DNA of 59,286 bases, filler included. It is 7 parts of 7 records of this genome, joined end to end, with 100 filler letters (N's around TTAATTAATTAA, not from the genome) between each part and the next. Parts side by side here need not be neighbours in the genome. Positions count along the whole stretch, not along the records: positions 52,369 to 59,286 come from SRR31156797_7714; 6 more parts are not named here. The stretch is one strand, 5' to 3'. The notes under the pieces were generated by a model. That model did no database searches and was not told the DNA's origin. It saw only the letters and a list, made by a program, of their open reading frames with translations. Each line of letters begins with the position of its first letter. The stretch's first letter is position 1. Made by a program: the position numbers and the translations under genes. Below, in pieces: positions 5,027-59,129 of this stretch.

Positions 5027-5126
5027 NNNNNNNNNNNNNNNNNNNNNNNNNNNNNNNNNNNNNNNNNNNNTTAATTAATTAANNNNNNNNNNNNNNNNNN
5101 NNNNNNNNNNNNNNNNNNNNNNNNNN
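5027..5126. other. Artificial contig linker
   Basis: N44-TTAATTAATTAA-N44, giving stops in all six frames. Confidence 0.98.
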
Positions 5127-17458: not shown

Positions 17459-17558
17459 NNNNNNNNNNNNNNNNNNNNNNNNNNNNNNNNNNNNNNNNNN
17501 NNTTAATTAATTAANNNNNNNNNNNNNNNNNNNNNNNNNNNNNNNNNNNNNNNNNNNN
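17459..17558. other. Artificial contig linker
   Basis: N44-TTAATTAATTAA-N44. Confidence 0.98.
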
Positions 17559-20943: not shown

Positions 20944-21034
20944 AAAAATAGGTATCCCGGACGTAAGTTCATTGCGAGCATGGCACAAACCGATCTGATG
21001 TTTCTCAATTGAAATGCACTGCCACAATAAAATA

Positions 21035-22946: not shown

Positions 22947-23046
22947 NNNNNNNNNNNNNNNNNNNNNNNNNNNNNNNNNNNNNNNNNNNNTTAATTAATT
23001 AANNNNNNNNNNNNNNNNNNNNNNNNNNNNNNNNNNNNNNNNNNNN
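22947..23046. other. Artificial contig linker
   Basis: N44-TTAATTAATTAA-N44. Confidence 0.98.
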
Positions 23047-25884: not shown

Positions 25885-27234
25885 TTATTGACGATTGAAA
25901 TGCTTAACCCTATTTCGACCAGAATTTTTTGCCATATATAGCGCCGTATCAGCATCCGATAACATATCTTCAATAGATGATTGATGAGTTAAGAAAGAAA
26001 CACCAATGCTAACGGTTAGCTCAATCGATTTGTCGTTATATTTTAAAGGTGACTTGCTCACTAACTCTCGTAATTCATTCGCAATTTCTATTGCTTTATC
26101 ATTTTCAATTCCTGCAAGGATAACCCCAAACTCTTCTCCCCCTAAGCGACCAAATATATCGGTTTCACGAAAGAACTTGCGGCAAATATCCACAAAATGC
26201 TTAAGTGCTTCATCACCTACCACATGACCATAAGAATCATTGACTTGTTTAAAATGATCGATATCCAACACAAGTAAAGAGAGCGAGTAATTGTTTGAAA
26301 GGTGTGTTTGAATTTCTCTTGCCGCTGCACCTAGAAACTGCCTACGATTCCAAATAGACGTAAGAGGATCGGTAGTTGCAGCAATAAATAGTTTTTCTTG
26401 ATACACATCTCTGTCGTGATAATTTTTAGATAGGAGTATGCGTGCAAGAGTAACAGTCACTGCCATTAACGAAAGTAATATTAGTATTACATAACCTGTT
26501 ACATCATCTGATATTTTAGGTGTGTACCAGTACAGATTGGAAATTGGAGTGCTAGTATCAACACCAGCTAGCAGCATAGAATCATTACTCTTAACATCAT
26601 TTGATGTATAGAGGATCGGCAATCTAAATTTCTTACTCAAATTGACTAAATAACTTTGATTTAATTCAACCGCCAACAACAAAAAAGAGTTGTCTATGAT
26701 GTTCCCTTTCTCCTCCTCTCGAAAAGGCTCTAGAGACACCAAAAAAACACCTCCGTTAAGCTTAGCGAAGAAGGAATCGTTAACTTTAACGATGTTTCGA
26801 CGCTCATTCATCATGACCCTTTCTAGAACAGACGAAGAGAGCACTGAAGTAGGTGTTAATTTATTTTCTACCTCACTGGATTCAGCTAATATTTCAACAT
26901 CTTTATTTTTATCAATTAAGATGACATAACTAAGACCATAAGTTGGTATTAAATAGTCTTGATAAGTTGCTTCTATCCACTCTTCATCACGATTCTTAAC
27001 CGTCGAATCATAGCCTTCATCCCAATACGAGTAATCTACATTTAGTTTATAAAGACTATCTTTTTCTATATTAAACGCTATTTCCACACGGCTATGAACA
27101 TCCAGCAAAGATTTATCATCTAAAACCGTCATAAAAAATAAAATCAATGCGGCAATAAGAGTAATTACAATAATGATAAGCCAAGTTACCATCGATATAA
27201 CGGCTCTTGCAGAAAAATAACGTTGGTTATACAT
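25885..27234 (-). CDS. CHASE4-like sensor diguanylate cyclase
   Basis: DYSYWDE periplasmic motif; TDPLTSIWNRR; RETD I-site; GGEEF. Confidence 0.85.
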   Translation of the reverse strand: MYNQRYFSARAVISMVTWLIIIVITLIAALILFFMTVLDDKSLLDVHSRVEIAFNIEKDSLYKLNVDYSYWDEGYDSTVKNRDEEWIEATYQDYLIPTYGLSYVILIDKNKDVEILAESSEVENKLTPTSVLSSSVLERVMMNERRNIVKVNDSFFAKLNGGVFLVSLEPFREEEKGNIIDNSFLLLAVELNQSYLVNLSKKFRLPILYTSNDVKSNDSMLLAGVDTSTPISNLYWYTPKISDDVTGYVILILLSLMAVTVTLARILLSKNYHDRDVYQEKLFIAATTDPLTSIWNRRQFLGAAAREIQTHLSNNYSLSLLVLDIDHFKQVNDSYGHVVGDEALKHFVDICRKFFRETDIFGRLGGEEFGVILAGIENDKAIEIANELRELVSKSPLKYNDKSIELTVSIGVSFLTHQSSIEDMLSDADTALYMAKNSGRNRVKHFNRQ

Positions 27235-27257: not shown

Positions 27258-28832
27258 CTATTGATTATTTAATTCTATTAATGGTTTGGGAGTGAAAAAT
27301 TCCAAATAATCATCTAGCAGCAATGGTTTGCTAAAAAAATACCCTTGCAAATAGTTACAATGCATATCTTCCAATATTTTAATTGTCGCCTCATCCTCAA
27401 CGCCTTCAGCAACAACACTACAATTCAATGATTTAGCTAAAAAAATCATTGAGCTCACGATAGAGTGATTTGAGTTATGCGTGTTCATATCACTAACGAA
27501 CGAACGGTCAATTTTTAATTGCGTTAAGGGAAGATCTTTAAGTAGTGAAAATGAGGAATATCCAGTACCAAAATCATCTAAGCTGAAGGAAAAACCAATA
27601 TTAGATAATTTTGTCATGATAATAGCCGCTTGTTTCAAATCTGTCATCATAGCACTTTCCGTTATTTCAAACGTTAAACGGCTTGGGTCTAATTTTGTCT
27701 TAACTGAAAAGTCACTCAGACAGGAAAGTAACTTGCTATTATGTAAATCTTTGGTGGATAAATTGATATGTAAGCATCCGTCAAATCCATTTTCATCTAA
27801 AATTTCAATATCGTGAATTGCTCTTTTTACCACCCAACAAGTAATATCGTGAATTAACGTACTTTGCTCTGCGATTGGAATAAACTTATCCGGAGGTATA
27901 TACGTACCATCAGGCTGCTGCCATCGGATCAATACTTCTGCTCCATGAACTATCTTGGTTTTACTTTCAATAATTGGTTGATAACAGAGACTAAATTCGT
28001 CATTTTCTATTGCGCATTGGAGCTTGTTAACGATGTCCAGATGTTCCAATATATTTTTATTCAAATCCTCAGAAAAAATCTTCCAGTTGCCCTTACTGCT
28101 TTTAGAAGCGTATAACGCTTGCTCAGCCTGCTGAATGAGATCGTCTGAACTTTTAATCATGCATGGGTATATACTGATACCGATACTAACGCCAACTATA
28201 AAATTCTGATTCTGAACTGAAATAGCCTGAGAAAATAATTTCTGTACCGTGTCTATATCCTGCTCTAAAAGGGAGCTATCACTTCCTTTTCCGACAATTG
28301 CAAACTCGTCACCACCCACTCTAAAAAGTCGGCAATAGGAAGGAAGTGCTTGTGAAATACGATTTGCAACTTGCTTTAAAAGCTCATCGCCAAATGAGTG
28401 ACCAAAAGCGTCGTTAAATTGCTTAAAGTTATTTAAATCGACCAGTAGTATGTGAAATGGTACTGCTCTATCAACTAAACGTTCAATCGACTTAGTAAAT
28501 GAGTATCTATTTTTTAGGTTGGTAATACGATCATGAGTGGACTGAAACTCCTGAAAGAGAATACTATTCAACGAATAATTTGTAACTAAAAAGACAAAAG
28601 CACCACCGCTTAATAGTAAAACACTAAAGGCCAAGTAGGCATTACTGAACTCTTCATGCTGCCAAATATAGATAAAAGAACCAAAATACATCAAAAGAAA
28701 TGAGATAATCAGAATAAACAGAAGCTTCCATCCGGAATCTTTTGTTTTATCTAAAATTCTTTTAGTTGGCCATAAACTGAATGCAAGTAGTACAAAACCC
28801 ACAAAAACTGAAAATAACGTAATTAACTTCAT
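27258..28832 (-). CDS. Membrane GGDEF-EAL protein
   Basis: 3 N-terminal TM segments; GGDEF; EVLIRW; EITES; DDFGTGYSS; VAEGVE; LQGY. Confidence 0.9.
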   Translation of the reverse strand: MKLITLFSVFVGFVLLAFSLWPTKRILDKTKDSGWKLLFILIISFLLMYFGSFIYIWQHEEFSNAYLAFSVLLLSGGAFVFLVTNYSLNSILFQEFQSTHDRITNLKNRYSFTKSIERLVDRAVPFHILLVDLNNFKQFNDAFGHSFGDELLKQVANRISQALPSYCRLFRVGGDEFAIVGKGSDSSLLEQDIDTVQKLFSQAISVQNQNFIVGVSIGISIYPCMIKSSDDLIQQAEQALYASKSSKGNWKIFSEDLNKNILEHLDIVNKLQCAIENDEFSLCYQPIIESKTKIVHGAEVLIRWQQPDGTYIPPDKFIPIAEQSTLIHDITCWVVKRAIHDIEILDENGFDGCLHINLSTKDLHNSKLLSCLSDFSVKTKLDPSRLTFEITESAMMTDLKQAAIIMTKLSNIGFSFSLDDFGTGYSSFSLLKDLPLTQLKIDRSFVSDMNTHNSNHSIVSSMIFLAKSLNCSVVAEGVEDEATIKILEDMHCNYLQGYFFSKPLLLDDYLEFFTPKPLIELNNQ

Positions 28833-30000: not shown

Positions 30001-30834
30001 TTATTCAAGCAACATCAAACCCGCACCTGTGTTTGAAATTGGGATGTGATAATTGCTGTGCTTTACTTCCAATGTAGGATTCAACACACCGCGCATACCC
30101 AACCACATATTCAGTTCAGGACCTTGTGAACCACCTTGTTCCACCAAATCTCGGACAGAAAACTTAGTCAGCTCTTCAGGTTCATTAACGATTTTGTCCA
30201 TACAATAAAGATCGAACTCTTTGTTGATGAAACCCGCACGTTCGCCATCTAACTGGTGAGACAGACCACCGGTTCCCAGTACAACGACTTTTAAATCTTT
30301 GTCGTAGCTACGAACTGCATCACCAATCGCTTTACCAAGGTCATAACAACGCTTCGGTGAAGGCATTGGGTGTTGTTCAACGTTAATACATACCGGAATT
30401 ACTTTAATATGATCGTATTTATTACCCGGCCACATCAGCTGCATGGGTACTGTTAAACCGTGGTCAACTTTCATTTCCTGACAAATCGTAATATCAAACT
30501 CATTGTCCACCAGCTCATTACAGATATGCCAAGCCATCTCTGATTCACCATGAATGGTTGGAATCGGTTTAATGCCCCAACCTTCATCAGAGTTGTGGTA
30601 CTCCTCCGCAACACCAATAGAGAATGTCGGTTTCTTATCAAGGAAAAACTCCAAACCGTGGTCGTTGTAAAAGATGATAGCAACATCTGGCTGCTTCTCA
30701 CCAAGCCATTCGCGAACAGGAGGGTAAGCATCGAAGAATGATTTCCAATAAGGGGTCTGCTCTATACCTTGATCGATCGCTTTGCCGATTGCTGGGATAT
30801 GTGATGTGGTAATTCCACCTAAAATCTGTGCCAT
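30001..30834 (-). CDS. ligB: Protocatechuate 4,5-dioxygenase beta subunit
   Basis: TTSHIPAIG, YNDHG, DHGLTVP, GTGGLSHQL. Confidence 0.88.
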   Translation of the reverse strand: MAQILGGITTSHIPAIGKAIDQGIEQTPYWKSFFDAYPPVREWLGEKQPDVAIIFYNDHGLEFFLDKKPTFSIGVAEEYHNSDEGWGIKPIPTIHGESEMAWHICNELVDNEFDITICQEMKVDHGLTVPMQLMWPGNKYDHIKVIPVCINVEQHPMPSPKRCYDLGKAIGDAVRSYDKDLKVVVLGTGGLSHQLDGERAGFINKEFDLYCMDKIVNEPEELTKFSVRDLVEQGGSQGPELNMWLGMRGVLNPTLEVKHSNYHIPISNTGAGLMLLE

Positions 30835-30838
30835 GTCC

Positions 30839-31192
30839 TTATCTCCCTGCATCCACTAGTTTTTGTTTAAACTCTTCCAGAGTCACGCCAGTTTGAAGCG
30901 CACCGATGTCCTGCATGTTCATACCCAACAAACCAGCGAATTTCGCCAGATAATAGATATTGCCACCCAGTTCAATCATCTTAAGTACGTCACGATCTCG
31001 TACTGCCTGCTTTTGTTCTTCCGTTAAACCAAAGCGGTCACAATAAGCCATTTCATCTTTATTAAACTCTTCACGAGCACTTGCTTCATTGAAGGTGTAA
31101 CACATTTTGTTCAACTCGTATCCTTTCCGAGCCATACCACCATCAAAGAAGGTAGTACCTGGTACAGGGACTTCATTTTTTACGTATGCCAT
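30839..31192 (-). CDS. ligA: Protocatechuate 4,5-dioxygenase alpha subunit
   Basis: PGTTFFDG..ARKGYELNKMC, GGNIYYLAK. Confidence 0.9.
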   Translation of the reverse strand: MAYVKNEVPVPGTTFFDGGMARKGYELNKMCYTFNEASAREEFNKDEMAYCDRFGLTEEQKQAVRDRDVLKMIELGGNIYYLAKFAGLLGMNMQDIGALQTGVTLEEFKQKLVDAGR

Positions 31193-31201
31193 AACTTTCT
31201 C

Positions 31202-32071
31202 CTAATCCCAGTAAAGCTTGATAGGGTTATCAATCAACAATGCTTGTTGCAGTTCTGCTGTTGGTGCAATTTGTGGAATCACATCCACTAGATGACCATC
31301 GTCCGGCATGTGAGATTTCATATTAGGGTGTGGCCAGTCTGTTCCCCAAAGCACTTGTTGTGGGAAGTTTTCAACCAGATATTTAGCAAACGGAACAACA
31401 TCGCTGTAGTCTGGCTGAGTGAGTGTCAAACGTTCCGGACAGCTTACTTTGGTCCAAATTTGAGGGTTATCCGCCAATAACTGGGCGAACTTCTGGAAGT
31501 CAGGGTGATCGACACCGAGCGCCACATCTGGCCGACCCATGTGGTCGATAACAATCTGTGTATCAAGCTCAAGCAAGAACGGCGCGATATCGTCAAAATC
31601 AGGCGCTTCAAAGTACACGACGATATGCCAGCCAAGTGGACGAATTTTTTCAGCAATAGAAAGGAATACCTCTTTCGGCGTGCTGTCCACCAAGCGTTTA
31701 ACGAAATTAAAGCGAACACCACGCACACCTAGGTTATGCATATGTTGCAGCTCTTGTTCGGTAATATCTGGGGATACTACTGCGACACCACGAGCTTTGT
31801 CTCCTGCATACTCAAGAGCATCAAGCAGAGCTTCATTGTCTGTACCGTGGCAGGAAGCTTGTACGATAACATTACGGCTGAAACCTAAATGATCACGCAG
31901 AGCAAATAACTGATGCTTGGAAGCATCACATGGGGTGTATTTACGTTTCTCTGAGTATGGAAACTCGCTCGCCGGACCAAACACATGGCAATGTGCATCA
32001 ACAGCACCTTCCGGTGCTACGAATTTAGGTTTACTCGGCTGAGGATGAAACGGTAGATAATCTTTATCCAT
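31202..32071 (-). CDS. ligI: 2-pyrone-4,6-dicarboxylate lactonase
   Basis: DAHCHVFGP, VQASCHGTDN, RFNFVKRL, LWGTDWPHPN. Confidence 0.9.
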   Translation of the reverse strand: MDKDYLPFHPQPSKPKFVAPEGAVDAHCHVFGPASEFPYSEKRKYTPCDASKHQLFALRDHLGFSRNVIVQASCHGTDNEALLDALEYAGDKARGVAVVSPDITEQELQHMHNLGVRGVRFNFVKRLVDSTPKEVFLSIAEKIRPLGWHIVVYFEAPDFDDIAPFLLELDTQIVIDHMGRPDVALGVDHPDFQKFAQLLADNPQIWTKVSCPERLTLTQPDYSDVVPFAKYLVENFPQQVLWGTDWPHPNMKSHMPDDGHLVDVIPQIAPTAELQQALLIDNPIKLYWD

Positions 32072-32131
32072 TTTACTTCGTCCTTTTGTTATATCTTTTT
32101 ATATTGTTTGGTTTAGGGTGTTACCCTTAGA

Positions 32132-33199
32132 TCATCGCCCAAAGACAACACCATCAAACAATTTGCGAGCGGTTCTTAGAATCGCTGCACTTTTCACGTT
32201 ATTATTTTCATCTAGCTGCATCACCACACTTAGCTCTCCAGTGGGATGCTCGACACTCAATGTCATCTTTTGACTCACAGCAAAATCAGCATAACGATTC
32301 GCCGGTGAGCCTTCGAGTAAACAGGCGGTTGCGACACTGACTGCGCCCAAAACGCCAATGGCATCATGGCAGCGGTGCGGAATGAAAGTTCGTGTATTGA
32401 GAGCGCCACCATTTGCCGCTTTACTCACGATACTCATTTTAGGAACCGACAGCGCTGTTACGTCGCCTAAGTTCATCAAGCTTCCCGCTTTCAATCGAAG
32501 CTTTTCTAACTGCTCTCTCAACTCTCGGTTGTCTTCTAACTCCTGAGGAGTCTCATCACCGTTAATACCCAGCTCTTCAGCAGCAACCACAACCACTGGC
32601 ATTCCGTTATCAATCAGAGTGACGTTCAAGCCATTAATCTGGTCAACCGCATTACCGGTAGGGAGCAGAGATCCACAACTGGAACCCGCTGTATCTTTAA
32701 ACTCGATTTCTATCGAACTTGCGGTACCCGGTACGCCATCGATTCTGGCATCACCACGGTAGCTGACTTTGCCTTGCGGAGTTGGAACCTTGCACACTGC
32801 AAATTGCCCAGTGTTTTCCATATAGACAGACACTTTTGTCATGTCTCCAGTGATAGTAACCAGACCTTTTTCAATCGCAAACGGACCGACTCCCGACAAA
32901 ATATTTCCGCAGTTTTGCTTGTCGGTCACAATGGCCTGATCAACAAACACCTGTAGAAAAAGATAATCCACATCTGCACCTTCGCGCTCAGAAGGTTTAA
33001 CTACCGCCACTTTAGAAGTTAATGGATTAGCACCTCCTAAACCATCAATCTGTTTTACATCTGGGGAGCCCATCACTTCTAACAGGAACTCATCACGTTC
33101 AGATTGTGATTGAGGTAAATCCGACGCAAGGAAATAACCGCCTTTAGAGGTACCTCCTCGCATCCATAACGCTGGCACAGATAGTGGAGTGTTAGACAT
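32132..33199 (-). CDS. ligU: 4-oxalomesaconate tautomerase (PrpF/FldA family)
   Basis: [38 protein letters not shown]. Confidence 0.9.
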
Positions 33200-33869
33200 A
33201 TTTCAGTCCTTCTTTTTCTAAACGACCACGCATGTCATACACGTCAAGACCAAGTTCACCATTGGCGAAACGCACACGCTTCGTTTCTTCAAACGCTTCT
33301 CGAGCACGCGCTGCTTTTAATACTTCAACCGCTTCTTCACGGCGAACAACACACACACCATCATCGTCTGCAACAATCACATCACCCGCGTTGACCACTT
33401 CATCAGCACACACAACAGGTACATTCACTGAACCCAATGTTGCTTTGATCGTGCCTTGGGCGAAGATATGCTTTGACCAAACAGGGAAGTTCATACCTTT
33501 GAGTACTCTCACATCACGAACACCGCCGTCGATGATCAAACCAACCACACCACGCGATTGAGCCGAAGTTGCCAGAAGATCACCGAAGAAACCGTGATTT
33601 GAAGGCGAAGTCGGTGCAAATACGAGAATGTCACCCGGCTTACACTGCTCAATAGCAACGTGAATCATCCAGTTGTCTCCAGCGGCACCAGAAATCGTAA
33701 TCGCTGAGCCAGCGACAGCTACGTCGCTATAGATAGGACGCATATAATCCGCTAATAAGCCTTTACGACCTTGAGCTTCATGAACCGTTGCAACGCCACA
33801 TTCCGCCAAACCTTTAATGGTTTCTTCATCAACTCGTTCAATGTTTTGAACAACAATATTGTTACTCAT
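33192..33869 (-). CDS. ligK: 4-carboxy-4-hydroxy-2-oxoadipate aldolase
   Basis: [35 protein letters not shown]. Confidence 0.92.
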
Positions 33870-33881
33870 TGCCTATTCTCC

Positions 33882-34910
33882 TTAGCGTGTCTTCTTGAGC
33901 TGTTTATCCAGACGGCTGAATACTCGCAGAGCATTGCCTGAGAAGATTTGTGCTTTTTCGTCTTCGCTCAGTTTCGTGTTGGCATCGATATAACGTTTGG
34001 TGTCATCAAAGTAGTGCCCTGTTTCTGGGTCAATCCCACGCACTGCACCAATCATTTCTGATGCAAACAGAATGTTTTTCACTGGCAGCAAGTCCAGCAA
34101 CAAGTCGATGCCTTTTTGGTGATAAACGCAGGTATCAAAATAGATGTTATTCAGTACAGACTCTTCCAGTGGCGGTAAGCCCATGTCCTGCGCTATACCA
34201 CGGAATCGTCCCCAGTGATAAGGAACGGCACCACCACCATGCGGGATGATAATTTTCAGCTCAGGGAAATCTTTAAATACATCTGACATTAAAAGTTGTG
34301 AAAATGCGGTGGTATCAGCGCCGAGGTAATGTGAACTTGTTGTATGGAAGCAACAATTACAAGCAGCACTCACGTGAATCATGGCTGGAACGTCCAGCTC
34401 TACAAGCTTTTCGTAAAGAGGATAAAAACTGCGGTCAGCTAAAGAAGCATCCTTCCAGAAACCACCAGTTGTATCCGGATTCAGGTTACAGCCAATGAAT
34501 CCCATTTCCTCAACACAGCGGACAAGTTCTGGAATTGATTTGCTCGGTGTAATACCCGGTGACTGCGGCAATTGAGCCACTGGGGCAAAGTTATTCGGGT
34601 ATAAATCACATACTCGGCGAATCAGTTCGTTTTGGTGTTCAGTCCAGAAACGGCTGGTATGTTCATTTCCGATATGGTGCCCCATCCAACTCGCACGAGG
34701 AGAGAAGATAGTCAAATCAGTACCGCGTTCTTGTTGTAAGCGCAACTGATTGCTATCAATACTTTCGCGAATTTCATCATCGCTGATATGTATCGTGCCT
34801 TTCTCGCCTTTAAATTTTGGATCGGTTTTTAGGGCTTCTTTCTGCGCCTCTCTATACGCTCCTACCTGAGGTGGGGTCGTAGTGTAATGTCCATGACAAT
34901 CGATGATCAT
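33882..34910 (-). CDS. ligJ: 4-oxalomesaconate hydratase
   Basis: MIIDCHGHYTT, FSPRASWMGHH, PHGGGAVPYHWGR, FASEMIGAV. Confidence 0.92.
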   Translation of the reverse strand: MIIDCHGHYTTTPPQVGAYREAQKEALKTDPKFKGEKGTIHISDDEIRESIDSNQLRLQQERGTDLTIFSPRASWMGHHIGNEHTSRFWTEHQNELIRRVCDLYPNNFAPVAQLPQSPGITPSKSIPELVRCVEEMGFIGCNLNPDTTGGFWKDASLADRSFYPLYEKLVELDVPAMIHVSAACNCCFHTTSSHYLGADTTAFSQLLMSDVFKDFPELKIIIPHGGGAVPYHWGRFRGIAQDMGLPPLEESVLNNIYFDTCVYHQKGIDLLLDLLPVKNILFASEMIGAVRGIDPETGHYFDDTKRYIDANTKLSEDEKAQIFSGNALRVFSRLDKQLKKTR

Positions 34911-35085: not shown

Positions 35086-36306
35086 ATGGACAAAATACCC
35101 AATCTCCGTCATTTGGTTGCGTTTGTTGCTGTCGTCAAAAATGGCAGCATAAACAAGGCTTCCGAAAGTATTTTTCTTTCTCAGCCAGCGATCACACAAG
35201 CGTTAGCAAAAATTGAGAAGCAGTTAAAAGCAGCCCTGTTTGAACGAAAGACAGATGGTATGAGCCTGACCAACGAAGGCCAGCTATTTCATTTTCGAAT
35301 CGAGCGTGCACTGGATATTCTGAGCAACGCAATTAAGAAAGGCTATCACCTTGATAAGAAGGGGCCTGCCCCCTCAAACCCCAGTTTATTTGCAGTCACA
35401 ACCACGCAACTAAGAGCGCTGGTTGCCGTTTCTGAAGCACAAAATTACTCGGCAGCCGGACGAAACATTGGTGTATCGCAGTCTTCCCTTTATAGAGCAT
35501 GTAAAGATTTTGAAGAGTACCTTGGCACCGTTTTATTTGAAAAAACCAGTTTAGGTGTCAGCCCAACAAAAGCAGCGCAAAACCTCAGTCGTGAAATAAA
35601 GCTAGCATTTAATGAGATATATCAAGGAATTGCAGAGATTAATGCGGCTAATAATGTCAGCTCAGGTAACATTATTGTTGGTAGCCTTCCGCTGGCACGA
35701 ACTTGCATACTTCCTCAGGCTATCAATGAGTTTACAGAAACACATCCCGACTTTAACGTCAGTGTTATTGATGGTCCATATGAGGATCTTCTCGACCATT
35801 TACGCCGTGGCGAACTGGATATCATCGTCGGAGCACTGCGATTTCCGGTGCCTTCATTTGATGTTCACCAAGAAACACTGTTCTTCACATCAAATGTCAT
35901 TATTGCGCGTAAGAATCACCCCCTCATGAACCAGAGAACGCCAGTAACACTCGATGATTTGTGTAAATTTGGCTGGGTTATATCTCGTAAGAATACCCCT
36001 GGCAGAACCATGTTTGAGCAAATATTCACCCGTAAAGAACATGCGCTACCTGTACAAATCATTGAGGCCAGCTCTCAAATGCTAGTAAGGGAAATCTTGG
36101 CCGGCAGCGACAAACTCACGATGTTACCCAAGCACCAAGTGCACCGTGAACTTAGTGACCAACTGTTTGATATTATTGATTATGATACCGAGCAACAAAA
36201 GCGAGCGATTGGTATAACCATTCGTAAAAGCTGGCAAGGTACCACCTCTCAGGAAGCTTTCATTACCACTATCCGTAATTTAGGACTGTCACTCACTGAC
36301 CTATAA
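35086..36306 (+). CDS. ligR: LysR regulator with duplicated HTH (LigR/GalR type)
   Basis: Two HTH blocks (NLRHLVAF...SQPAIT and TTQLRAL...SQSSLY); 406 aa; divergent from ligJ. Confidence 0.82.
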   Translation: MDKIPNLRHLVAFVAVVKNGSINKASESIFLSQPAITQALAKIEKQLKAALFERKTDGMSLTNEGQLFHFRIERALDILSNAIKKGYHLDKKGPAPSNPSLFAVTTTQLRALVAVSEAQNYSAAGRNIGVSQSSLYRACKDFEEYLGTVLFEKTSLGVSPTKAAQNLSREIKLAFNEIYQGIAEINAANNVSSGNIIVGSLPLARTCILPQAINEFTETHPDFNVSVIDGPYEDLLDHLRRGELDIIVGALRFPVPSFDVHQETLFFTSNVIIARKNHPLMNQRTPVTLDDLCKFGWVISRKNTPGRTMFEQIFTRKEHALPVQIIEASSQMLVREILAGSDKLTMLPKHQVHRELSDQLFDIIDYDTEQQKRAIGITIRKSWQGTTSQEAFITTIRNLGLSLTDL

Positions 36307-40328: not shown

Positions 40329-40428
40329 NNNNNNNNNNNNNNNNNNNNNNNNNNNNNNNNNNNNNNNNNNNNTTAATTAATTAANNNNNNNNNNNNNNNN
40401 NNNNNNNNNNNNNNNNNNNNNNNNNNNN
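40329..40428. other. Artificial contig linker
   Basis: N44-TTAATTAATTAA-N44. Confidence 0.98.
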
Positions 40429-46539: not shown

Positions 46540-46639
46540 NNNNNNNNNNNNNNNNNNNNNNNNNNNNNNNNNNNNNNNNNNNNTTAATTAATTAANNNNN
46601 NNNNNNNNNNNNNNNNNNNNNNNNNNNNNNNNNNNNNNN
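46540..46639. other. Artificial contig linker
   Basis: N44-TTAATTAATTAA-N44. Confidence 0.98.
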
Positions 46640-52268: not shown

Positions 52269-52368
52269 NNNNNNNNNNNNNNNNNNNNNNNNNNNNNNNN
52301 NNNNNNNNNNNNTTAATTAATTAANNNNNNNNNNNNNNNNNNNNNNNNNNNNNNNNNNNNNNNNNNNN
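52269..52368. other. Artificial contig linker
   Basis: N44-TTAATTAATTAA-N44. Confidence 0.98.
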
Positions 52369-52398
52369 ATCTAGGTTCGAATCCTAGTCACCCAGCCA
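52369..52398 (+). tRNA. 3' part of a tRNA (T-arm, acceptor strand, CCA), probably tRNA-Gln
   Basis: CTAGG-TTCGAAT-CCTAG T-arm, then TCACCCA-G-CCA. A72/G73 fits Gln, but the anticodon is not in the contig. Confidence 0.8.
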
Positions 52399-52408
52399 TA
52401 GCATACAT

Positions 52409-52443
52409 AAGGCCCTCAGCGTTCTTGCTGAGGGCCTTTTTTT
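52409..52443 (+). terminator. Intrinsic terminator after the tRNA
   Basis: AAGGCCCTCAGC-GTTCTT-GCTGAGGGCCTTTTTTT. Confidence 0.88.
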
Positions 52444-52483: not shown

Positions 52484-54327
52484 TCATGATTCTATAAGTG
52501 TATATTCGATGCGTGGGGGATAGACGGTGACCATGCCCGAGAAGGGGGAACTCAGGTGTAAGGTCAGGCTGGCAAGCGCCTCTTCCTGTTCCGGGCTCAG
52601 TTTATCGTTCAAGGGATCTTTCAATTCAAAGCTGATGGTGTCGTTTCCAATGATTACCGGTGGGATGGCGGTGGCATCCATGGCAAGTTCAAAGGGGGCT
52701 TGGGGATCCTGGTCCTGGGTGGAAGCGCTGAAAAATGCGTAATATGCTTCAACGCCTTTGATTGCAGTGATCTTTGTCAAAGGCGCTTTTTCCTGGGCGG
52801 CCTGCAGCACCTGGACCGGCTCGAACTCCCCGGATCGGGTGAACCACAATGCAGTTTTCCGGGCGGACTTCAATAATAGCCAATAGGGTTGGGCTGCCAG
52901 GGTGATTGAGTCACTCAACGGAATCCTGATCCAGGTGCATTCTCCCAGGGTGGTTGAATGGACCCGGGCTTCCGCGAGCTTTTTGCCGGAGGGTTGACCG
53001 TTCCAGTCTTCTTGCAGTTGAACCAGCAGTTCGGTTTCCTTTGCCAGGTTCATGATGCCAAGGGCCAGGCCATTGATGCTTACAGCCTTGTCCGGTGAAA
53101 CCTGTTGCGCGATCCAGCGATCCGCTGTGACGCTGATACCGGTTCGAAGAGAGCTTGTCAGGGGTTCCAGGGCATTGCCAACGACATGGGATGGCTCCCC
53201 CCCCTAAGCTTGCTTCGGTTTTCAGGTGGGCCGATAATACTTCGGCGTCCTTTGGGAGCTGTATAATGACTTCTTCCGTCTTCAATGCATTGCCGGAAAA
53301 GCGGGCGATTGTTTTTTCCCTGGAGGATACGCCCTGGTAAGGGAAGGAGGATTGTTGGCGTATCAGGGTATAGTTGATCATAAACTGGGTTGCGTCAAAG
53401 TTGCACGGTGCATCGGATTCAAACACAAGATCGATGCCGATGGTGCCGGGGATTGACGGTAGTTCTTCATTTTCTTTGGCTTGGCGGAAGACGGTTCTGA
53501 AATGCTCGTTTAAATAGCGGTTCAAAGCTTTGGCCAACTCCTTACCTGTTTTTTTTGTCTGCCGGGACCGTATCTGCCGGGTCGGCGATTTCACCGGGGA
53601 CATTCCAGAAATACTCGATGATCTCGTTGGTTTCTCCTGGCTGGACCGGCGACGCAATGCCCATGCGCGGACCGGTGGGATTGCTTTGTACGATTACGGA
53701 TTGCAGATGTTTTGTTTCAAGATTGACATGCGCCTGGGATTTGTCGAGCACTTTTATGGCGAACTTTGCACAGATAAAATCCTCGATTTCCTCATTGTTA
53801 GAGACAGTGTGCGTTGCTTCCCCGGCAATGGCTTCACCATCCACGCGATACAGCTCAATTTTATCAACATCCACTCCCCAGTCACTGGCAATGAGAAAAT
53901 CCCCATTCACGGCATTTTTACTTTTGTCCATTGGCACTGTCTCTTTTTCTGCGCTCGCCATGGCAAGGAATGGGGTATAAGACTCGGCTTCCAATGATTC
54001 TTTCGACACCTCAAAAAAAACATCTACGATCGCCTTTATTCCATTTTTTTTAATTCTGCGGGGTGCGTCGAAACTGACGATAACGGCACCGTCGGGCCCA
54101 TTGGCCTTTGAGGCCTGGATGGGACTTGCATTGTCCAAGGCGTCATATTCCTGGGGAGTAAAGAAACCCTCAAGGGCGCTTGAATCCGGGTTGACGTCAA
54201 TGCTGTCGGCATACCCGCCGGTGGAAAACTGCAAATTGACTACATGACGATAGACGACCAGCGGTGGTATTTCCACTGCTGAGGTGATTTCCCATGTGGT
54301 GTCGGTATCGGCAAGTATGATATCCAT
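52484..54327 (-). pseudogene. Unknown beta-rich protein 'D' (~613 aa if repaired) split by two homopolymer frameshifts
   Basis: ORFs 53542-54327, 52911-53657 and 52484-53053 join into one frame if A8 (53549-53556) and G8 (53197-53204) are each shortened by one base. Confidence 0.7.
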
Positions 54328-54401
54328 GTACCACCCATTATTATTACTTTTTATTAAGCATCGAGGCCCAGGTCATCCTGACGAAGATGTTGGCCCGCAA
54401 A

Positions 54402-55570
54402 CTACCTGGGCCTTCTCTTAAAATCGTTGTAATCCCGTTTAAAGACTTTGAAATTCCTGTCAAAGCTATTGACCTCATTGCTGAATTTCGAATAGGTGGT
54501 GTCAAATTTTGCCAGTTTACTGTCTGCCGCGGCCAATTTTTCCTCAAGGGCGTTAGTCTTAGTAATGAAGTCCTGGTATTTTCGTGAAAAATCTTCGGCT
54601 TTCAATTGTTCAGCCGCTTGAACAATGGCCCGGACATCCCCTATTTCGGCAAACTTGGTATCCACATTGCGAGTAATATCGGTGCGAACATGCCCCATGA
54701 CTGCCAATGAGCTCATTTGAGTGGTTGAGACATTTTTTACGGCCATACCAAGGGCGGAAAACAAGAGCTGCCGGGTAGTAAACGGCAGGCCTTCCATACC
54801 GGTGGAGAGGAAATTATTCACTTGTCGCCGGGCCACTTTTTTAGCTGCCGACGCCCCCACCAACCCGGCCTGTCCCGAGGCATAGCTGTTCAACCGGTTG
54901 ACCATGTTGTCGAGAAGCTGGCCTTGGTCGGTCATTTGGTCCTTAAACCGGTTGAAATCATCGTTGATGGTGCAACTCTCGTCAAGGCGTGTGAGATATG
55001 CCTGGTACCAGGGCACAATCCAATCCTTGACACGAACTTTCAGCACTGTCGTGCTCTCCACCGCATGGCCCCACCGGGAGGGTTGATCCTCTTCGTGCAA
55101 ATAGGCGGTGACGAGGGCATGGATGGAAGACCAGGCATTATTCGGGGATGGCGGATTGATGGAGGCCGCCAACGCCTCACTCCGGGTGCGGAAATAGATA
55201 TCCATGGCCTGGCGCAGCGCCACACTCCCATTTGCCTGGTATTGCACACAAGATTATCCAGTCCCGCGACATCATCATAGGGGGTTGAGGCTTCAGGATC
55301 AAGGGCGCGCAGGGCGGAATCCAGGGCCAGTTGCTGGGCGTAGGTAAGGTTTTCATAGGTGGGGCCGGTGAGTTTGGTCTTTGCCTTTCCATTGATATCC
55401 GTTTGTGCCGTGACAATGCTGCCATGGCGTTTTTCAAACCCCACATGGGTTTCCGGGGCTCCCCAGCTGGTGGCAAGGGTCAGGGGCTGGTTTGCCCTGG
55501 GCCGGTTTTTCCGGGTATCACGCACCTCCGCAGGTGATAAGGATTCAGGTTTTATGTAGGATTTAAGCAT
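54402..55570 (-). pseudogene. Unknown Ig-like/helical/coiled-coil protein 'C' (~389 aa repaired), frameshifted
   Basis: ORFs 55040-55570 and 54402-55247 join with one added base near 55247; paralogous to B. Confidence 0.65.
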
Positions 55571-55591
55571 TCACGCCAAGCCTTTCCCAGC

Positions 55592-57216
55592 TTATTGCTT
55601 GTCAACCTTGGTCAGTATTTCCGTTACCTGGCCCCGGATGTTTTCGATATTGCCCATCAGTATATCCCGCTGGGGCACATTGAATTCGACAATCTTGTTC
55701 TGCATATCCGTCATGGTGCCCAGCACCTGATCTCCAATGGTGGACGAGCTTTCTTCCAGGGTGGTGACCGAGCCTTTCAAATCGCTTACATCTTCCCCCA
55801 GGGTATCGAGGCCTGACATCTTGATGGCCTGGTCCATGACAGTGGTGAACCCCGGTTGCCTGACTCCCCCCTCCCCGCCTGCACCGGCACCGGAATATTG
55901 CAGGACGTTCCAGGCCTTTTGATTGCCGAGCCCATAGCTCACGGTCTCTTTTGCCTGGGCCGCCACCTCGGGCTCGAGGGGGATGTCTATCTGCTCCACC
56001 GCTTTTCCAAAGGCGTTCAATATCTTGTTTTGATGGATGACCCCGTGGGTGGACTGCACCTCGTCCTCCAATGTGATTTTCATGCCCTCCAGGGTGACGT
56101 AGATGTCCGGGTCCACCCATTTGATCAACCCGTCGACAATGTCCGCCACCTCAAGCTGGTCATCTTCAAAATACCAGTCGATCCAGGGGCCGACCCAGTC
56201 CTTGAACGCGATCTGGATCGCGCTTGCGGCGGACTTGGAGTCGGGGGTGGTCGGGTCGCCGTCTTCCTTGGCGATGCCCACCACCGTGGAGCGGTAGTAC
56301 TTCCAGTTACCGGCGAAATTGATGCCCCCCTGCCAGCGGGCGGCCTGATTGCCCACATAATAGGCATCGGCAAAGCGGTGCATGAATACCATGTTGCCGC
56401 GCTGGTACACTTTCTTCATTTCATTGTAGACGGAGGTGGCGATGTCGTCACCGGCATTGGGGGCGATATTCAATGTCTGCTCCACGGTCTGATCGGTGGC
56501 CTGGACCACGGACTTGAAAAAGCCTTCCACCTGGGCTTCGTCTTCCTCACTCAGCTCCTGCGGGTGCTCCGAGCTGATCCGCACCCGGCGATGGCGTTGG
56601 CATCAGTGCGTACGGAAATGGAATGGCCGTCAATGCCCGACCGCGTATCAAATCCGTCAAAGGGTTTCAGCTTGCCCCAGCTGATGATGAAGTCCACCCA
56701 CGGGCGATTGGCCGGTACGGCGCCGTCCAGGGTTCGCACAGTCGCGGTAAGCACTGCGCGCTCCCCAAGGTTGTAGGCCTCCCGGGTGGTTTCGAGCTTG
56801 ACCACGTACTGGTCCCGCAGGGGCTGAACAGAGGCTTTGAACGGGTTGTACTCTTCGCTCACAAAGGTATCCAGCTCATCCTGCTCCACCACATCGGTTT
56901 CTTCCAGCCGGGTCACACGGCCTGACAAGGTGTCCGTGGCGGCACTGTCCCCGGCGTCCCCCACAAATTCTTCCAGGGCCTCGATCCGGCCCCGCAACGT
57001 GTAACCGGCGCCCTGTTCGAACCCGATGAAGGTTTCAACGTCTTCCACCCTGTTATGAACGGCCGCCAATTCATCTGCCACTGTTTTCACACTGGAGACA
57101 AGGGTATTCCGTTCTTCGTGCTTGATGAGGTCCCCCTGGATTTTTTCAGCCAGGGTCCCCATTGCCGTAATCGCGTCCTGTAAATCCTGAAAAGCCATGA
57201 TCATTTGTAACGCCAC
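55592..57216 (-). pseudogene. Unknown coiled-coil/Ig-like protein 'B' (~541 aa repaired), frameshifted
   Basis: ORFs 56551-57216 and 55592-56584 join as ...TDANAIA-RVRISSEH with one added C near 56587. Confidence 0.7.
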
Positions 57217-57929
57217 AACTCCCCCGCCCCGTTAGCCCGGGTGGCCACCCACAACATCCGGTCCCGGGTTTGAACCATGGCGGTCACAGCGCCTGTGGGC
57301 GCTCCCGGACTGCTAACCCAGGGCCCCGGGGCCGTAGGATTGGCCCCGGCCGTATCGGCGGGATCGGACCGGGAGGTCAACAGGTTGTTTTCCAGGCCCA
57401 GCCAAGAATGGTAGGCGGGCCGCAACCGCAGCACCTCCCCCGGGGGAATGGTGCCCTGGCAGGCAATCCCGGGAAGGGGGAACCCTTCCCCCGAGTCATA
57501 CAATTCCAGAACGGGATCCACCGTGGCATCCCGCTGACCGGGAATGGCGCTGATCCCCTCGATATACAGGGTCAGGGGCGCGTCTTCCAGCCCGTCATTC
57601 TCAAAATCCCACCGCATCAGCGGTCCCACAAGGTTCAACGGCAGCCCTGCTCCATCAAAGGGCGCCCCCCGAACAGCGAAGGGTTTTCGGACCGTCACCA
57701 AAGGCGCGTATTCTTCAATGGAAAAGGACTGTTTCCGTTGGAGACGCCGCCCGTAGATGGCCCCTTTGGGATCGTCGTTTACGGCGATAAACCCGCCCAC
57801 CCCGATAGGAGTAATCCGTGTGCCGGTAAATAACACTCTTGGTTCAAAAACAGGATCAGGGGCCTCGGGCAGCATCCCCTCTATCAAAGCCCTCAGGCCG
57901 GCCAGCGATTCATTGCTTATAATATCCAT
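57201..57929 (-). CDS. Unknown protein 'A', possibly a chimeric or truncated remnant
   Basis: GAGGA RBS upstream; Pro/Gly-rich beta character; ends after one propeller-like blade (AVTAMVQTRDRMLWVAT...ELWRYK) and overlaps B. Confidence 0.55.
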   Translation of the reverse strand: MDIISNESLAGLRALIEGMLPEAPDPVFEPRVLFTGTRITPIGVGGFIAVNDDPKGAIYGRRLQRKQSFSIEEYAPLVTVRKPFAVRGAPFDGAGLPLNLVGPLMRWDFENDGLEDAPLTLYIEGISAIPGQRDATVDPVLELYDSGEGFPLPGIACQGTIPPGEVLRLRPAYHSWLGLENNLLTSRSDPADTAGANPTAPGPWVSSPGAPTGAVTAMVQTRDRMLWVATRANGAGELWRYK

Positions 57930-58730
57930 CCGGTTCAGTCTTCCTCACATGCGTATAAGAGATTTAACAAATCCTTTGAGAAGGCCGCCCCACTATGGCC
58001 TTCCTCTTTCCCGGACACCCGCGAAAAGTTTGCAATAATATCGACAATTGAACCCGCTACAGCACGAGTAATCTTTAACGCTTTCGCAAAACTAAAGACT
58101 CAGATGGGAACGTCAATCACATTGACAGGAATGACTTTGGATTTTGGTTTGTTTAAATGTCACCTTAGCATAGGGCCAAACCCGAAATACCCCCTGACAA
58201 GCAATTAGTTATTTAAACACGATTACCATTTAGTAAACAAAGCAGCTTCACGATTACATCATTTCGTCAGAAAACCACGCTACATTTTCAACGTTTCCAT
58301 GGTTCCCCACACCTTTTTTTTCCATCCCAAGCCCACACATATGCCCTTTGATCACTTTAAAAAACGATTCGCTATTTTGCAGATGAAATTTTACAAAAAC
58401 AAACAACGTCCACCAGAATTTCAACCGAGCATCAATGATGCCGGCCCGGCATCCGCATTCAAAGCCCCACTTTCCAATCTTTCCGTGTGACAAAACATTT
58501 ATCGCCCACTTCCGGAACAACCCCTTAAGAATTCAGAACTTTTCTACAAAAATCGATCTTACGCCATGACCTTGACCCCCTGACAGATGAAATTTACAAT
58601 TGCGTTATCATCAATCTTTATTTATAACAGCCCGGCGCCCCCGCAAAACCGGTATGCCAAAACAGGTTGTGCGGAAGTGCGAACAAATGAAAATTAATAT
58701 AATAAAGGACACGAACAGGAAAAATTAAAA

Positions 58731-59129
58731 ATGGCAAGAAGATTAAGAAAATTAACGGACTCACGGAGAAAAAAAAACAAACAAAAAGCAGCCGCGAAAA
58801 AGCTCAAGCCAGTTGAACCGAAGGCTGTCGAAACAACCACGGAAGCGCCCGTCGAACCCCCAAAGGATGCCGAGCCGCTCCCAAAGACAGACACAGCCAA
58901 AAACGCGACTGAAGAAGTTACTGAAGAAGTTGCCGAGGAAATTACCGAAGACACAAAATTTCACACTGCAAAAGAGGCCGCAGAAATGCTGGGCATATCC
59001 GCAAAACAAGTTACAGCTTTCATTCAAGATAAAAGCCTTGCAAACGCCTTCAAAAAAAGCGGGAGATGGCAGATCCCCGACTCAGACATCCAGACCCTCA
59101 AAAAGAAGTTACAAGAGCCCTCCGAATAA
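58731..59129 (+). CDS. Excisionase-like (HTH_17) DNA-binding protein with a long charged N-terminal tail
   Basis: FHTAKEAAEMLGISAKQVTAFIQ...KSGRWQIPDSDI; basic then acidic low-complexity leader. Confidence 0.75.
   Translation: MARRLRKLTDSRRKKNKQKAAAKKLKPVEPKAVETTTEAPVEPPKDAEPLPKTDTAKNATEEVTEEVAEEITEDTKFHTAKEAAEMLGISAKQVTAFIQDKSLANAFKKSGRWQIPDSDIQTLKKKLQEPSE

Follow-up and report, generated by a model that had tools for sequence, protein, structure and literature searches.

Probable remnant of the distal end of a headless contractile phage-tail-like gene cluster beside a tRNA-Gln gene

RESULTS

Four disrupted genes lie between a divergent HTH_17 gene and a truncated tRNA

We examined a 59,286-base stretch of DNA (the window), in which seven contigs are chained through six identical linkers of the form N44-TTAATTAATTAA-N44, and focused on four co-directional minus-strand genes, here called A to D, that span 52484-57929. 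The locus lies wholly inside the last contig (52369-59286; 6,918 bases, guanine-plus-cytosine (GC) content of 43-59%). The contig to the left of 52369 has a GC content of 33% and carries unrelated housekeeping genes (SecF, LolD-like, and TIGR02757-like). It was considered as genomic context and rejected; an artificial linker is the sole join, so nothing left of 52369 is a true neighbor of the locus. Because linkers separate all the contigs, genes that face each other across a linker cannot be read as neighbors, and the seven pieces, whose GC contents range from 32% to 61%, may derive from different organisms. The last contig contains the following features, in which ORF stands for open reading frame.

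52369-52398, plus strand: 3'-terminal 30 nucleotides of a tRNA-Gln(CTG) gene, cut by the contig end (identity 30/30)
52409-52438, plus strand: strong hairpin terminator of 13 pairs (8 GC) followed by a T run, between the tRNA 3' end and the D stop
52484-54327, minus strand: D, apparent pseudogene in three frames (ORFs 54327-53542, 53657-52911, and 53053-52484)
54402-55570, minus strand: C, apparent pseudogene and paralogue of B (ORFs 55570-55040 and 55247-54402)
55592-57198, minus strand: B, apparent pseudogene with one frameshift (ORFs 57216-56551 and 56584-55592)
57201-57929, minus strand: A, chimeric 242-codon ORF in which a gene called gene 1 is fused to the gene for an 828-amino-acid propeller protein
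57930-58730, no strand: intergenic (promoter) region between the divergent genes, with partial synteny to the intact locus
58731-59129, plus strand: HTH_17 DNA-binding gene (Pfam E 1.5e-6; phrog_10045 E 1.1e-8)

The original prediction, made from the window's letters, had described A to D as four co-directional genes without a recognizable enzyme motif. The strand and the span hold, and no piece of A to D gives a Pfam match above the cut-off or a significant PHROG match; a weak Reg_prop match falls at residues 211-231 of A (Pfam, E 0.13). B, C, and D are not whole genes. Their frames are broken relative to several intact orthologues, and on this comparison all three are pseudogenes, with one frameshift in B, one in C, and two in D, as well as a loss of about 130 codons from C. 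Residues 1-204 of B are read in one frame and residues 205-542 in another; intact B homologues are undivided ORFs of 528-542 amino acids. By tblastn, C covers residues 1-17, then about 139-249, and then 244-514 in another frame, and the pieces of D fall in frames 1, 2, and 3; intact D homologues have 568-621 amino acids.

The tRNA 3' end on which the genes had been said to converge is real, but it is cut. The fragment consists of the T-arm and acceptor end only and matches, at 30 of 30 positions, the 3' terminus of each of three intact tRNA-Gln(ctg) copies in two comparison sequences (L001 and L004). ARAGORN calls no tRNA at 52369-52398 and Rfam has no match on the contig, because the contig starts inside the tRNA. 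At the other border, the gene previously labeled excisionase-like does encode a divergent HTH_17 protein, 61% identical to the HTH_17 protein placed divergently before gene 1 in the intact relative G001. Since it is a conserved neighbor of the intact operon, a role as regulator is more likely than one as excisionase. Within the intervening region, window 58267-58130 aligns to 4859-4998 of L013 (G001), and window 59225-58519 aligns to L013 3887-4616; promoter-like sites in 57930-58730 are consensus matches only.

Intact relatives in Desulfobacterales carry a contractile-tail operon

A search with the C-terminal piece of B returned 17 proteins, the best of them 88% identical. All but one (16/17) are single ORFs of 497-542 amino acids, and both window B pieces align to them end to end. 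The named homologues come from metagenome-assembled genomes of Desulfobacteraceae and Desulfobulbaceae, and the host of the locus is a Desulfobacterales-like bacterium. We compared four loci from Desulfobacterales genomes, adding the upstream 20 kb of one of them (G001). In the intact relatives, a headless contractile-tail operon of ~31 kb extends from the divergent HTH_17 gene to tRNA-Gln(CTG), and all four genomes have a sheath gene 22-25 kb upstream of B and on its strand. The G001 operon contains the following genes; several Pfam scores of its baseplate genes are below the curated cut-offs, and their PHROG scores are strong.

Gene 1, operon strand (+): 365 amino acids, no family
Sheath, operon strand (+): 360 amino acids; PF04984 E 3.2e-13, phrog_279 E 8.6e-35, PF17482 above cut-off
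Four genes after the sheath: 164, 162, 424, and 199 amino acids, no family
Tape measure-like coiled-coil protein: 1,151 amino acids; phrog_1272 E 3.6e-16
Two NHL-repeat proteins: 1,409 and ~1,373 amino acids (L013 13810-18039; L013 18080 to L004 2454)
Gene between the NHL-repeat proteins and the hub: 127 amino acids, no family
gpD/gp44-like hub: 366 amino acids; phrog_177 E 1.6e-8; matches Gp44-like_2nd and Phage_GPD
gpV-like spike: 211 amino acids; Phage_base_V E 1.2e-7
PAAR protein: 131 amino acids; E 7.8e-12
gp25: 183 amino acids; phrog_975 E 5.2e-17
gpJ/gp6-like wedge: 601 amino acids; phrog_6 E 3.7e-35
Reg_prop beta-propeller protein: L004 7512-9998, 828 amino acids; Reg_prop E 3.3e-22
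B, C, and D, at the 3' end of the operon: 535, 531, and 621 amino acids
tRNA-Gln(CTG), after D, on the opposite strand

The 164- and 162-amino-acid proteins encoded after the sheath would suit a tube in size and place, and they have no match in Pfam, PHROG, NCBIfam, or PDB sequences; PDB sequence searches with gene 1 and the 164-amino-acid gene gave chance-level matches only. A scan of 25 G001 ORFs, 20 in the operon and 5 in the ~5 kb on each side, revealed no capsid, portal, terminase, integrase, AAA+ ATPase, or lysis family. One side of the operon is bordered by the HTH_17 gene and a HAMP/PAS sensor; the opposite side has tRNA-Gln, a PocR sensor, and an FAD oxidase. G001 has two identical tRNA-Gln(CTG) genes 5.4 kb apart (L004 15256-15329 and 20710-20783), which enclose the PocR/PAS sensor, the FAD/BBE oxidase, and a 291-amino-acid gene. 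A tRNA-Gln repeat of this kind would account for the end of the window's contig falling within the tRNA.

Three deletions and four frameshifts separate the window from the intact operon

Breakpoints and borders were mapped with blastn and tblastn. Both borders of the intact locus, the HTH_17 gene and tRNA-Gln, are retained in the window. Between gene 1 and the propeller gene, 22,316 bp are absent relative to G001, and 21,751 bp relative to G002 (deletion 1). Window 57930-57745 holds the first 62 codons of gene 1 (aligning to L013 5234-5419), and window 57740-57205 holds codons 158-338 of the 828-amino-acid gene (aligning to L004 7989-8524). By tblastn, residues 1-64 of A match gene 1 in five loci, and residues 62-242 match the 828-amino-acid gene in four. 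The join is in frame, and relatives share GCGCATT at the site. That A is a fusion of two proteins near residue 65, ending in a single propeller blade, had been predicted from the sequence and proposed for testing by matching its halves to different genes; the halves do match different genes, namely, gene 1 and the middle of the propeller protein.

The remaining lesions are smaller. Deletion 2 removed 1,471/1,463 bp at an AATG microhomology, so that propeller codons 339-826 are gone, one propeller blade is left, and a stop codon stands just ahead of the B start. Deletion 3, an in-frame loss of 393/396 bp (~130 codons) from C relative to L004/L001, lies near the N terminus at a GAGGT microhomology. 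B lacks 1 nucleotide at 56586 and C lacks 1 at 55245. Relative to L001 and L004, D has gained 1 nucleotide in an A8 run at ~53549 and another in a G8 run at ~53197; neither L001 nor L004 has an 8-base homopolymer at either site. Programmed frameshifting or phase variation at these runs was considered and rejected, given that the runs are absent in L001/L004 and that the frame is open in 30 of 31 relatives.

Pfam and PHROG scans of the window's locus, from the HTH gene to the tRNA, found no sheath, tube, or baseplate gene, and none was found among 42 ORFs scanned on the window's other contigs. The proposal that these genes had been deleted is thus borne out by the ~22 kb missing between retained borders. 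The window locus is a nonfunctional remnant, a product of ordinary gene decay, and cannot make the machine.

A second assembly and related sequences bear on whether the lesions are real

The probable source run has also been assembled separately by Logan, and that assembly includes a 6,918-base contig identical to this one, with a word depth of 90. It shows no joint or indel at the lesions and no alternative joint. The two assemblies share the same reads and are therefore not independent. We also found, in a marine-sediment RNA library (run X2), contigs of a relative that is 90-95% identical to the window. Within 55390-57919, they span portions of A and B and short stretches of C and D. This relative has an extra G at 56586, and its contigs run on into sequence unlike the window's precisely at the three deletion junctions (55521/55529, 57205/57211, and 57734/57744). 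The X2 relative thus lacks the B frameshift and all three deletions. Another run, X3, gave no aligning contig, which is not taken as a sign of absence. The RNA library may hold DNA, and contig depth was not taken as expression.

Open frames of at least 0.8 times full length were found in 40 of 41 relatives for A, 67 of 68 for B, 48 of 48 for C, and 30 of 31 for D. The corresponding open-frame fractions in the window are 0.30, 0.63, 0.53, and 0.38. The ratio of nonsynonymous to synonymous substitution rates (dN/dS) is 0.21-0.30 between the window and its closest relative, L001, and 0.18-0.27 between intact loci. This similarity indicates that most of the divergence predates the decay and that the decay is recent.

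The propeller protein, B, C, and D form an invariant distal module

At a threshold of E <= 1e-3, a profile of B found 246 representatives (50% identity clusters), of which 127 were at E <= 1e-30; the D family has 26 homologues. To place these families in their gene neighborhoods, we compared 80 metagenome loci with relatives of B (23-76% identity) to the G001 proteins by tblastn, covering 10 kb upstream of B. Per-gene counts take in only loci with enough flank, and the sheath region lies beyond it. The propeller gene is directly upstream of B in 64 of 65 loci, and J (29/29), gp25 (24/24), PAAR (20/20), spike (17/17), and hub (16/16) genes lie further upstream. Downstream of B are C (55/57) and D (20/20). 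Together with the four genomes, these 80 contigs give 84 loci in which the propeller protein, B, C, and D are an invariant distal module. The original prediction had proposed looking for tail genes beside homologues; tail genes do accompany B in the four genomes and, wherever the flank is long enough, in the metagenome loci.

The slot just upstream of the hub is variable. It is occupied by the NHL giants in G001 and by a protein of 838-1,035 amino acids in 13 of 14 long metagenome loci, with a C-terminal M23 peptidase domain in L054 and L091 and an M12 domain in L032. The slot of the 14th long locus (L052) contains smaller ORFs, including one for an M14 carboxypeptidase. This slot may be a variable payload slot.

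Within the phylum of G001, relatives of B were found in 1 of 401 sampled genomes, the sole one being G001 itself. A tblastn search of 50,697 phage records with B gave no match, and a pattern scan of IMG/VR viral contigs yielded no confirmed relative of B.

Predicted structures of B and D fit a possible fiber or receptor-binding role

B and C are paralogues (21% identity over 277 amino acids, E 6e-12), and D is unrelated to B. None of the three belongs to a sequence family in Pfam, PHROG, NCBIfam, or PDB, and PDB searches with B and D profiles gave nothing at E <= 1; B has a weak match to a fibritin PHROG (E 0.0028). In the AlphaFold model of an intact B homologue, with a predicted local distance difference test score (pLDDT) of 85.1, long helices at 27-128 and 451-536 accompany an immunoglobulin (Ig)-like sandwich, formed by 131-209 and 300-334, and an alpha/beta core at 218-440 (pLDDT ~95). 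The sandwich resembles invasin/intimin domains (against invasin, Z 9.0 and root mean square deviation (rmsd) 1.6 with 91 amino acids aligned). The model and the paralogy of B and C agree with the coiled coils and Ig-like module that had been read from the sequences of both. Foldseek searches of the PDB and BFVD with the B model gave Ig-like domain matches only, none at E <= 0.001. A wide fold search with the 218-440 core as part of the whole model reached Z of ~7-8, which is in the common range, with no convincing match.

When three copies of B residues 1-215 were modeled together, the interaction prediction score from aligned errors (ipSAE) was 0.85, compared with 0.00 for the best of three controls. 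Contact agreement among runs was at least 87%, partner pLDDT was at least 80, and the contacts joined the same residues in register. The ipSAE mark, which was calibrated with two copies and not three, is reached by 21 of 30 proteins solved as one-chain pairs and by 0 of 23 single chains. These models support a parallel, in-register trimeric coiled coil, a fiber-like stalk, as the predicted form of the N-terminal part of B.

The model of D (pLDDT 80.4) is nearly all beta, as predicted from its sequence. Its jelly roll at 385-545 matches phi812 baseplate chains (Z 14.7-14.8, rmsd 2.7-2.9, 146-149 amino acids), the Bxb1 tail tip (Z 12.7), and the Douge central fiber (Z 12.6); CBM6/35 modules and PHR domains score Z of 7-10 against it. 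Across phi812 (9euf_0), Bxb1, and Douge, the rmsd is 2.7-3.7 over 146-155 amino acids, but only one of several D domains matches, with 5-12% identity, and so common a fold does not imply shared function. The model suggests that D is a multi-beta-sandwich protein with a jelly roll like that of a carbohydrate-binding module (CBM). In the ESM Atlas, the best scores were 0.76 for B and 0.84 for D, both to unnamed clusters that offered no lead.

The propeller of the 828-amino-acid protein is most similar to the sensor domain of a Bacteroides hybrid two-component system (4a2l, E 8.7e-21), a type that we take to bind glycans. A propeller of this periplasmic two-component sensor type is an unusual domain for a protein in a baseplate position.

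Mu and P2 tails encode their fibers after the J and I genes. Because of their gene position, strict conservation, and lack of enzyme domains, we lean slightly toward a peripheral fiber or receptor-binding role for B, C, and D over a role as cargo. Of the earlier description of the locus as a fiber/cargo end, then, the fiber half fits conserved, syntenic genes free of enzyme domains, and the cargo half is less likely.

The intact cluster is closest in layout to Mu/P2-type tails and R-type tailocins

With a sheath, gp25, J, hub, spike, and tape measure, the intact cluster has, by its gene content, the makeup of a contractile phage-tail-like machine, that is, a contractile injection system (CIS) in the broad sense. 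Its closest layout, judged from the genes, appears to be that of a Mu/P2-type tail or an R-type tailocin. Like these, it is a tail-only cluster with a sheath, a tape measure, a gpD/gp44-like hub, a gpV-like spike, gp25, and a gpJ-like wedge followed by genes in the fiber position, with no recognized AAA+ ATPase; no capsid, portal, or terminase family occurs in the G001 operon or the ~5 kb on either side. Diffocin TRI-2 (8v3w) is the best solved sequence relative of the J-like wedge (E 1.2e-6). Excerpts of a survey describe phages and R-type bacteriocins as having fibers and a tape measure and no ATPase (PMC12210884), a composition that the intact operon fits as far as that text describes it. 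Unlike those systems, however, the cluster has a PAAR gene, an 828-amino-acid beta-propeller protein at the gpI position, two NHL giants of ~1,400 amino acids inside the G001 operon, and three distal proteins without sequence relatives in PDB, Pfam, or PHROGs. In addition, no holin, endolysin, or lysis cassette was recognized among the operon ORFs.

The original prediction had offered an extracellular CIS (eCIS) or a phage-tail locus. The contractile tail stands, whereas the Afp/PVC type of eCIS fits less well, since without a recognized AAA+ ATPase the intact operon resembles a tailocin-like cluster more. The ATPase (Afp15/Cis15) was not found among the 20 G001 operon ORFs: Pfam gave no AAA family match at E <= 0.01 in the 25 G001 ORFs, and NCBIfam and PHROGs gave none in 17 ORFs; a very divergent ATPase or one encoded elsewhere is conceivable. 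The cluster shares with Afp/PVC-type eCIS a headless contractile tail, PAAR, and large nonstructural proteins, and the G001 sheath is distantly similar to Pvc3, Afp3, and Pvc4 (E 7.8e-5 to 2.2e-3); its matches to other solved phage-type tail sheaths have E values of 2e-5 to 1.7e-3. It differs in having separate hub and spike genes in place of one VgrG-like Afp8. No Afp13-like fiber was recognized: no Afp13/Pvc13 chain appeared in the fold searches with B and D or in the PDB profile searches (E <= 1), where an unlisted family is possible.

Two published accounts concern comparable systems. A table in one gives Geobacter sulfurreducens GSU0972-0992 as comprising an AAA ATPase (GSU0972), a sheath, tubes, and then, in this order, protein D, a spike, a wedge, hypothetical proteins, and an NHL-repeat protein (PMC10599522). 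Judged by this gene list, its layout is similar to ours but includes the ATPase. Passages of the other report eCIS in some sulfate-reducing bacteria and other Desulfobacterales (PMC10553843).

DISCUSSION

We conclude that the region at 52484-57929 is very probably the decayed distal end of a headless contractile phage-tail-like gene cluster. In this proposed history, a single deletion of ~22 kb would have fused gene 1 at codon ~62 to the propeller gene at codon ~158, taking with it everything needed for sheath, tube, and baseplate. Later decay would have brought the 1.47 kb deletion in the propeller gene, the 0.39 kb in-frame deletion in C, and four 1-nucleotide frameshifts (in B, in C, and two in D). 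In the intact machine, B and its paralogue C may form a trimeric coiled-coil fiber or strut that bears an Ig domain like that of invasin, and these two, along with D and the propeller protein, may make up a peripheral, target-binding part of the baseplate.

Three other explanations deserve weighing. The locus could be what is left of an ordinary prophage of the Mu/P2-like myovirus kind, whose tail fibers B, C, and D would encode. The order of genes, from sheath through tape measure to hub, spike, gp25, J, the I position, and fibers, is indeed that of a Mu/P2 tail; the hub matches Gp44-like_2nd and Phage_GPD, the structural genes match PHROG tail families best, and the HTH_17 gene and tRNA border are suggestive of an integrated element. 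Yet capsid, portal, terminase, and integrase families are missing from the 25 G001 ORFs scanned, flanks included, and sensor and oxidase genes adjoin the operon. With PAAR present in 20 of 20 loci with enough flank, and with B unmatched in the 50,697 phage records (tblastn) and unconfirmed in IMG/VR, we consider a prophage quite improbable. Alternatively, B, C, and D could be effector or toxin genes, like the 3'-terminal genes of Afp/PVC loci. eCIS payload genes are usually found at the 3' end of the locus, which is where B, C, and D lie in the operon, and they belong to no recognized structural family. Payloads are typically variable, however, whereas the order and presence of B, C, and D are conserved over the 80 metagenome loci down to 23-30% identity, and the variable slot is elsewhere, just upstream of the hub, with its NHL giants and M23/M12/M14 proteins. 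The three proteins have no enzyme or toxin domain, B is a predicted in-register trimeric coiled coil, and the D jelly roll is best matched by phage baseplate and tail-tip proteins, all of which makes cargo unlikely.

The last of these explanations holds that the lesions are artifacts of a chimeric or error-laden assembly and that the organism's operon is intact. The assembly is fragmented and very mixed in GC (32-61%), two of the four frameshifts lie in 8-base homopolymers, and both ends of the contig are repeats, the tRNA in one case and words of depth 134-166 in the other. Against this, the second assembler produced an identical contig over all 6,918 bases, at a word depth of 90 and with no alternative joint. 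The other two frameshifts (in B and C) are outside homopolymers, all three junctions are at microhomologies (GCGCATT, AATG, and GAGGT), as expected of real deletions, and the large one is in frame and gives a clean fused ORF. The window's neighboring contigs also carry whole genes. An artifact is therefore, in our judgment, very improbable.

Several points nevertheless weigh against reading the locus as a decayed tail-like cluster with a fiber module at its end. The reads were seen as contigs only, and a rare intact variant in the sample is possible, as are consensus errors in the A8 and G8 runs of D and an intact second copy of the operon elsewhere in the same organism. The dN/dS values show no relaxed selection; they fit recent decay and lend it no positive support. 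The fiber role draws on common predicted folds (Ig, jelly roll, and coiled coil), gene position, and one model-based oligomer test, a kind of test in which coiled coils can score high. Finally, no tube family (in the 164- and 162-amino-acid genes), AAA+ ATPase, cap, or lysis gene was recognized in the intact operon, and the class of the machine is thus only partly defined.

The intact lineage is an undescribed form of a known kind of machine, the contractile tail, and its conserved distal proteins B, C, and D belong to families without names. Within the library covered, a full-text literature search turned up neither an account of the B, C, or D families nor one of a baseplate protein with a propeller in clusters of this kind. 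If B, C, and D do bind the target, they decide what these machines attack and are the parts to swap for retargeting the particles. The window itself shows the stepwise loss of a costly machine, with a large microhomology-flanked deletion followed by small lesions in every surviving gene. Because the lineage lacks an AAA+ ATPase, and because the survey mentioned above states that it left out CIS clusters of related composition (PMC12210884), the lineage may be undercounted.

We also entertain a broader reading, which we regard as rather unlikely. The propeller protein, the B/C fibers, and the CBM-bearing D would be an undescribed target-recognition apparatus, carried on a widespread ATPase-less, PAAR-tipped machine of soil and sediment bacteria, and the window would be a natural fiber-only deletion whose fragments are perhaps kept. 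The gene 1 promoter might then still drive the fused A and the B-D fragments, perhaps for adhesion or decoy binding, and eCIS surveys may filter out the lineage because the ATPase is absent.

Other features of the window

The artificial linkers between the seven contigs lie at these positions.

5027-5126
17459-17558
22947-23046
40329-40428
46540-46639
52269-52368

The other contigs hold genes of different kinds. One carries a LigA/LigB ring-cleavage dioxygenase cluster (30001-34910, minus strand, and 35086-36306, plus strand) with two amidohydrolases, PrpF, an RraA-like aldolase, and an adjoining LysR regulator; these genes look like a pathway for 4,5-cleavage of protocatechuate or gallate. 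Three c-di-GMP signaling genes, of the PAS-GGDEF, CHASE4-GGDEF, and GGDEF-EAL types (18604-21027, 25885-27234, and 27258-28832), are spread over two of the contigs outside the locus.

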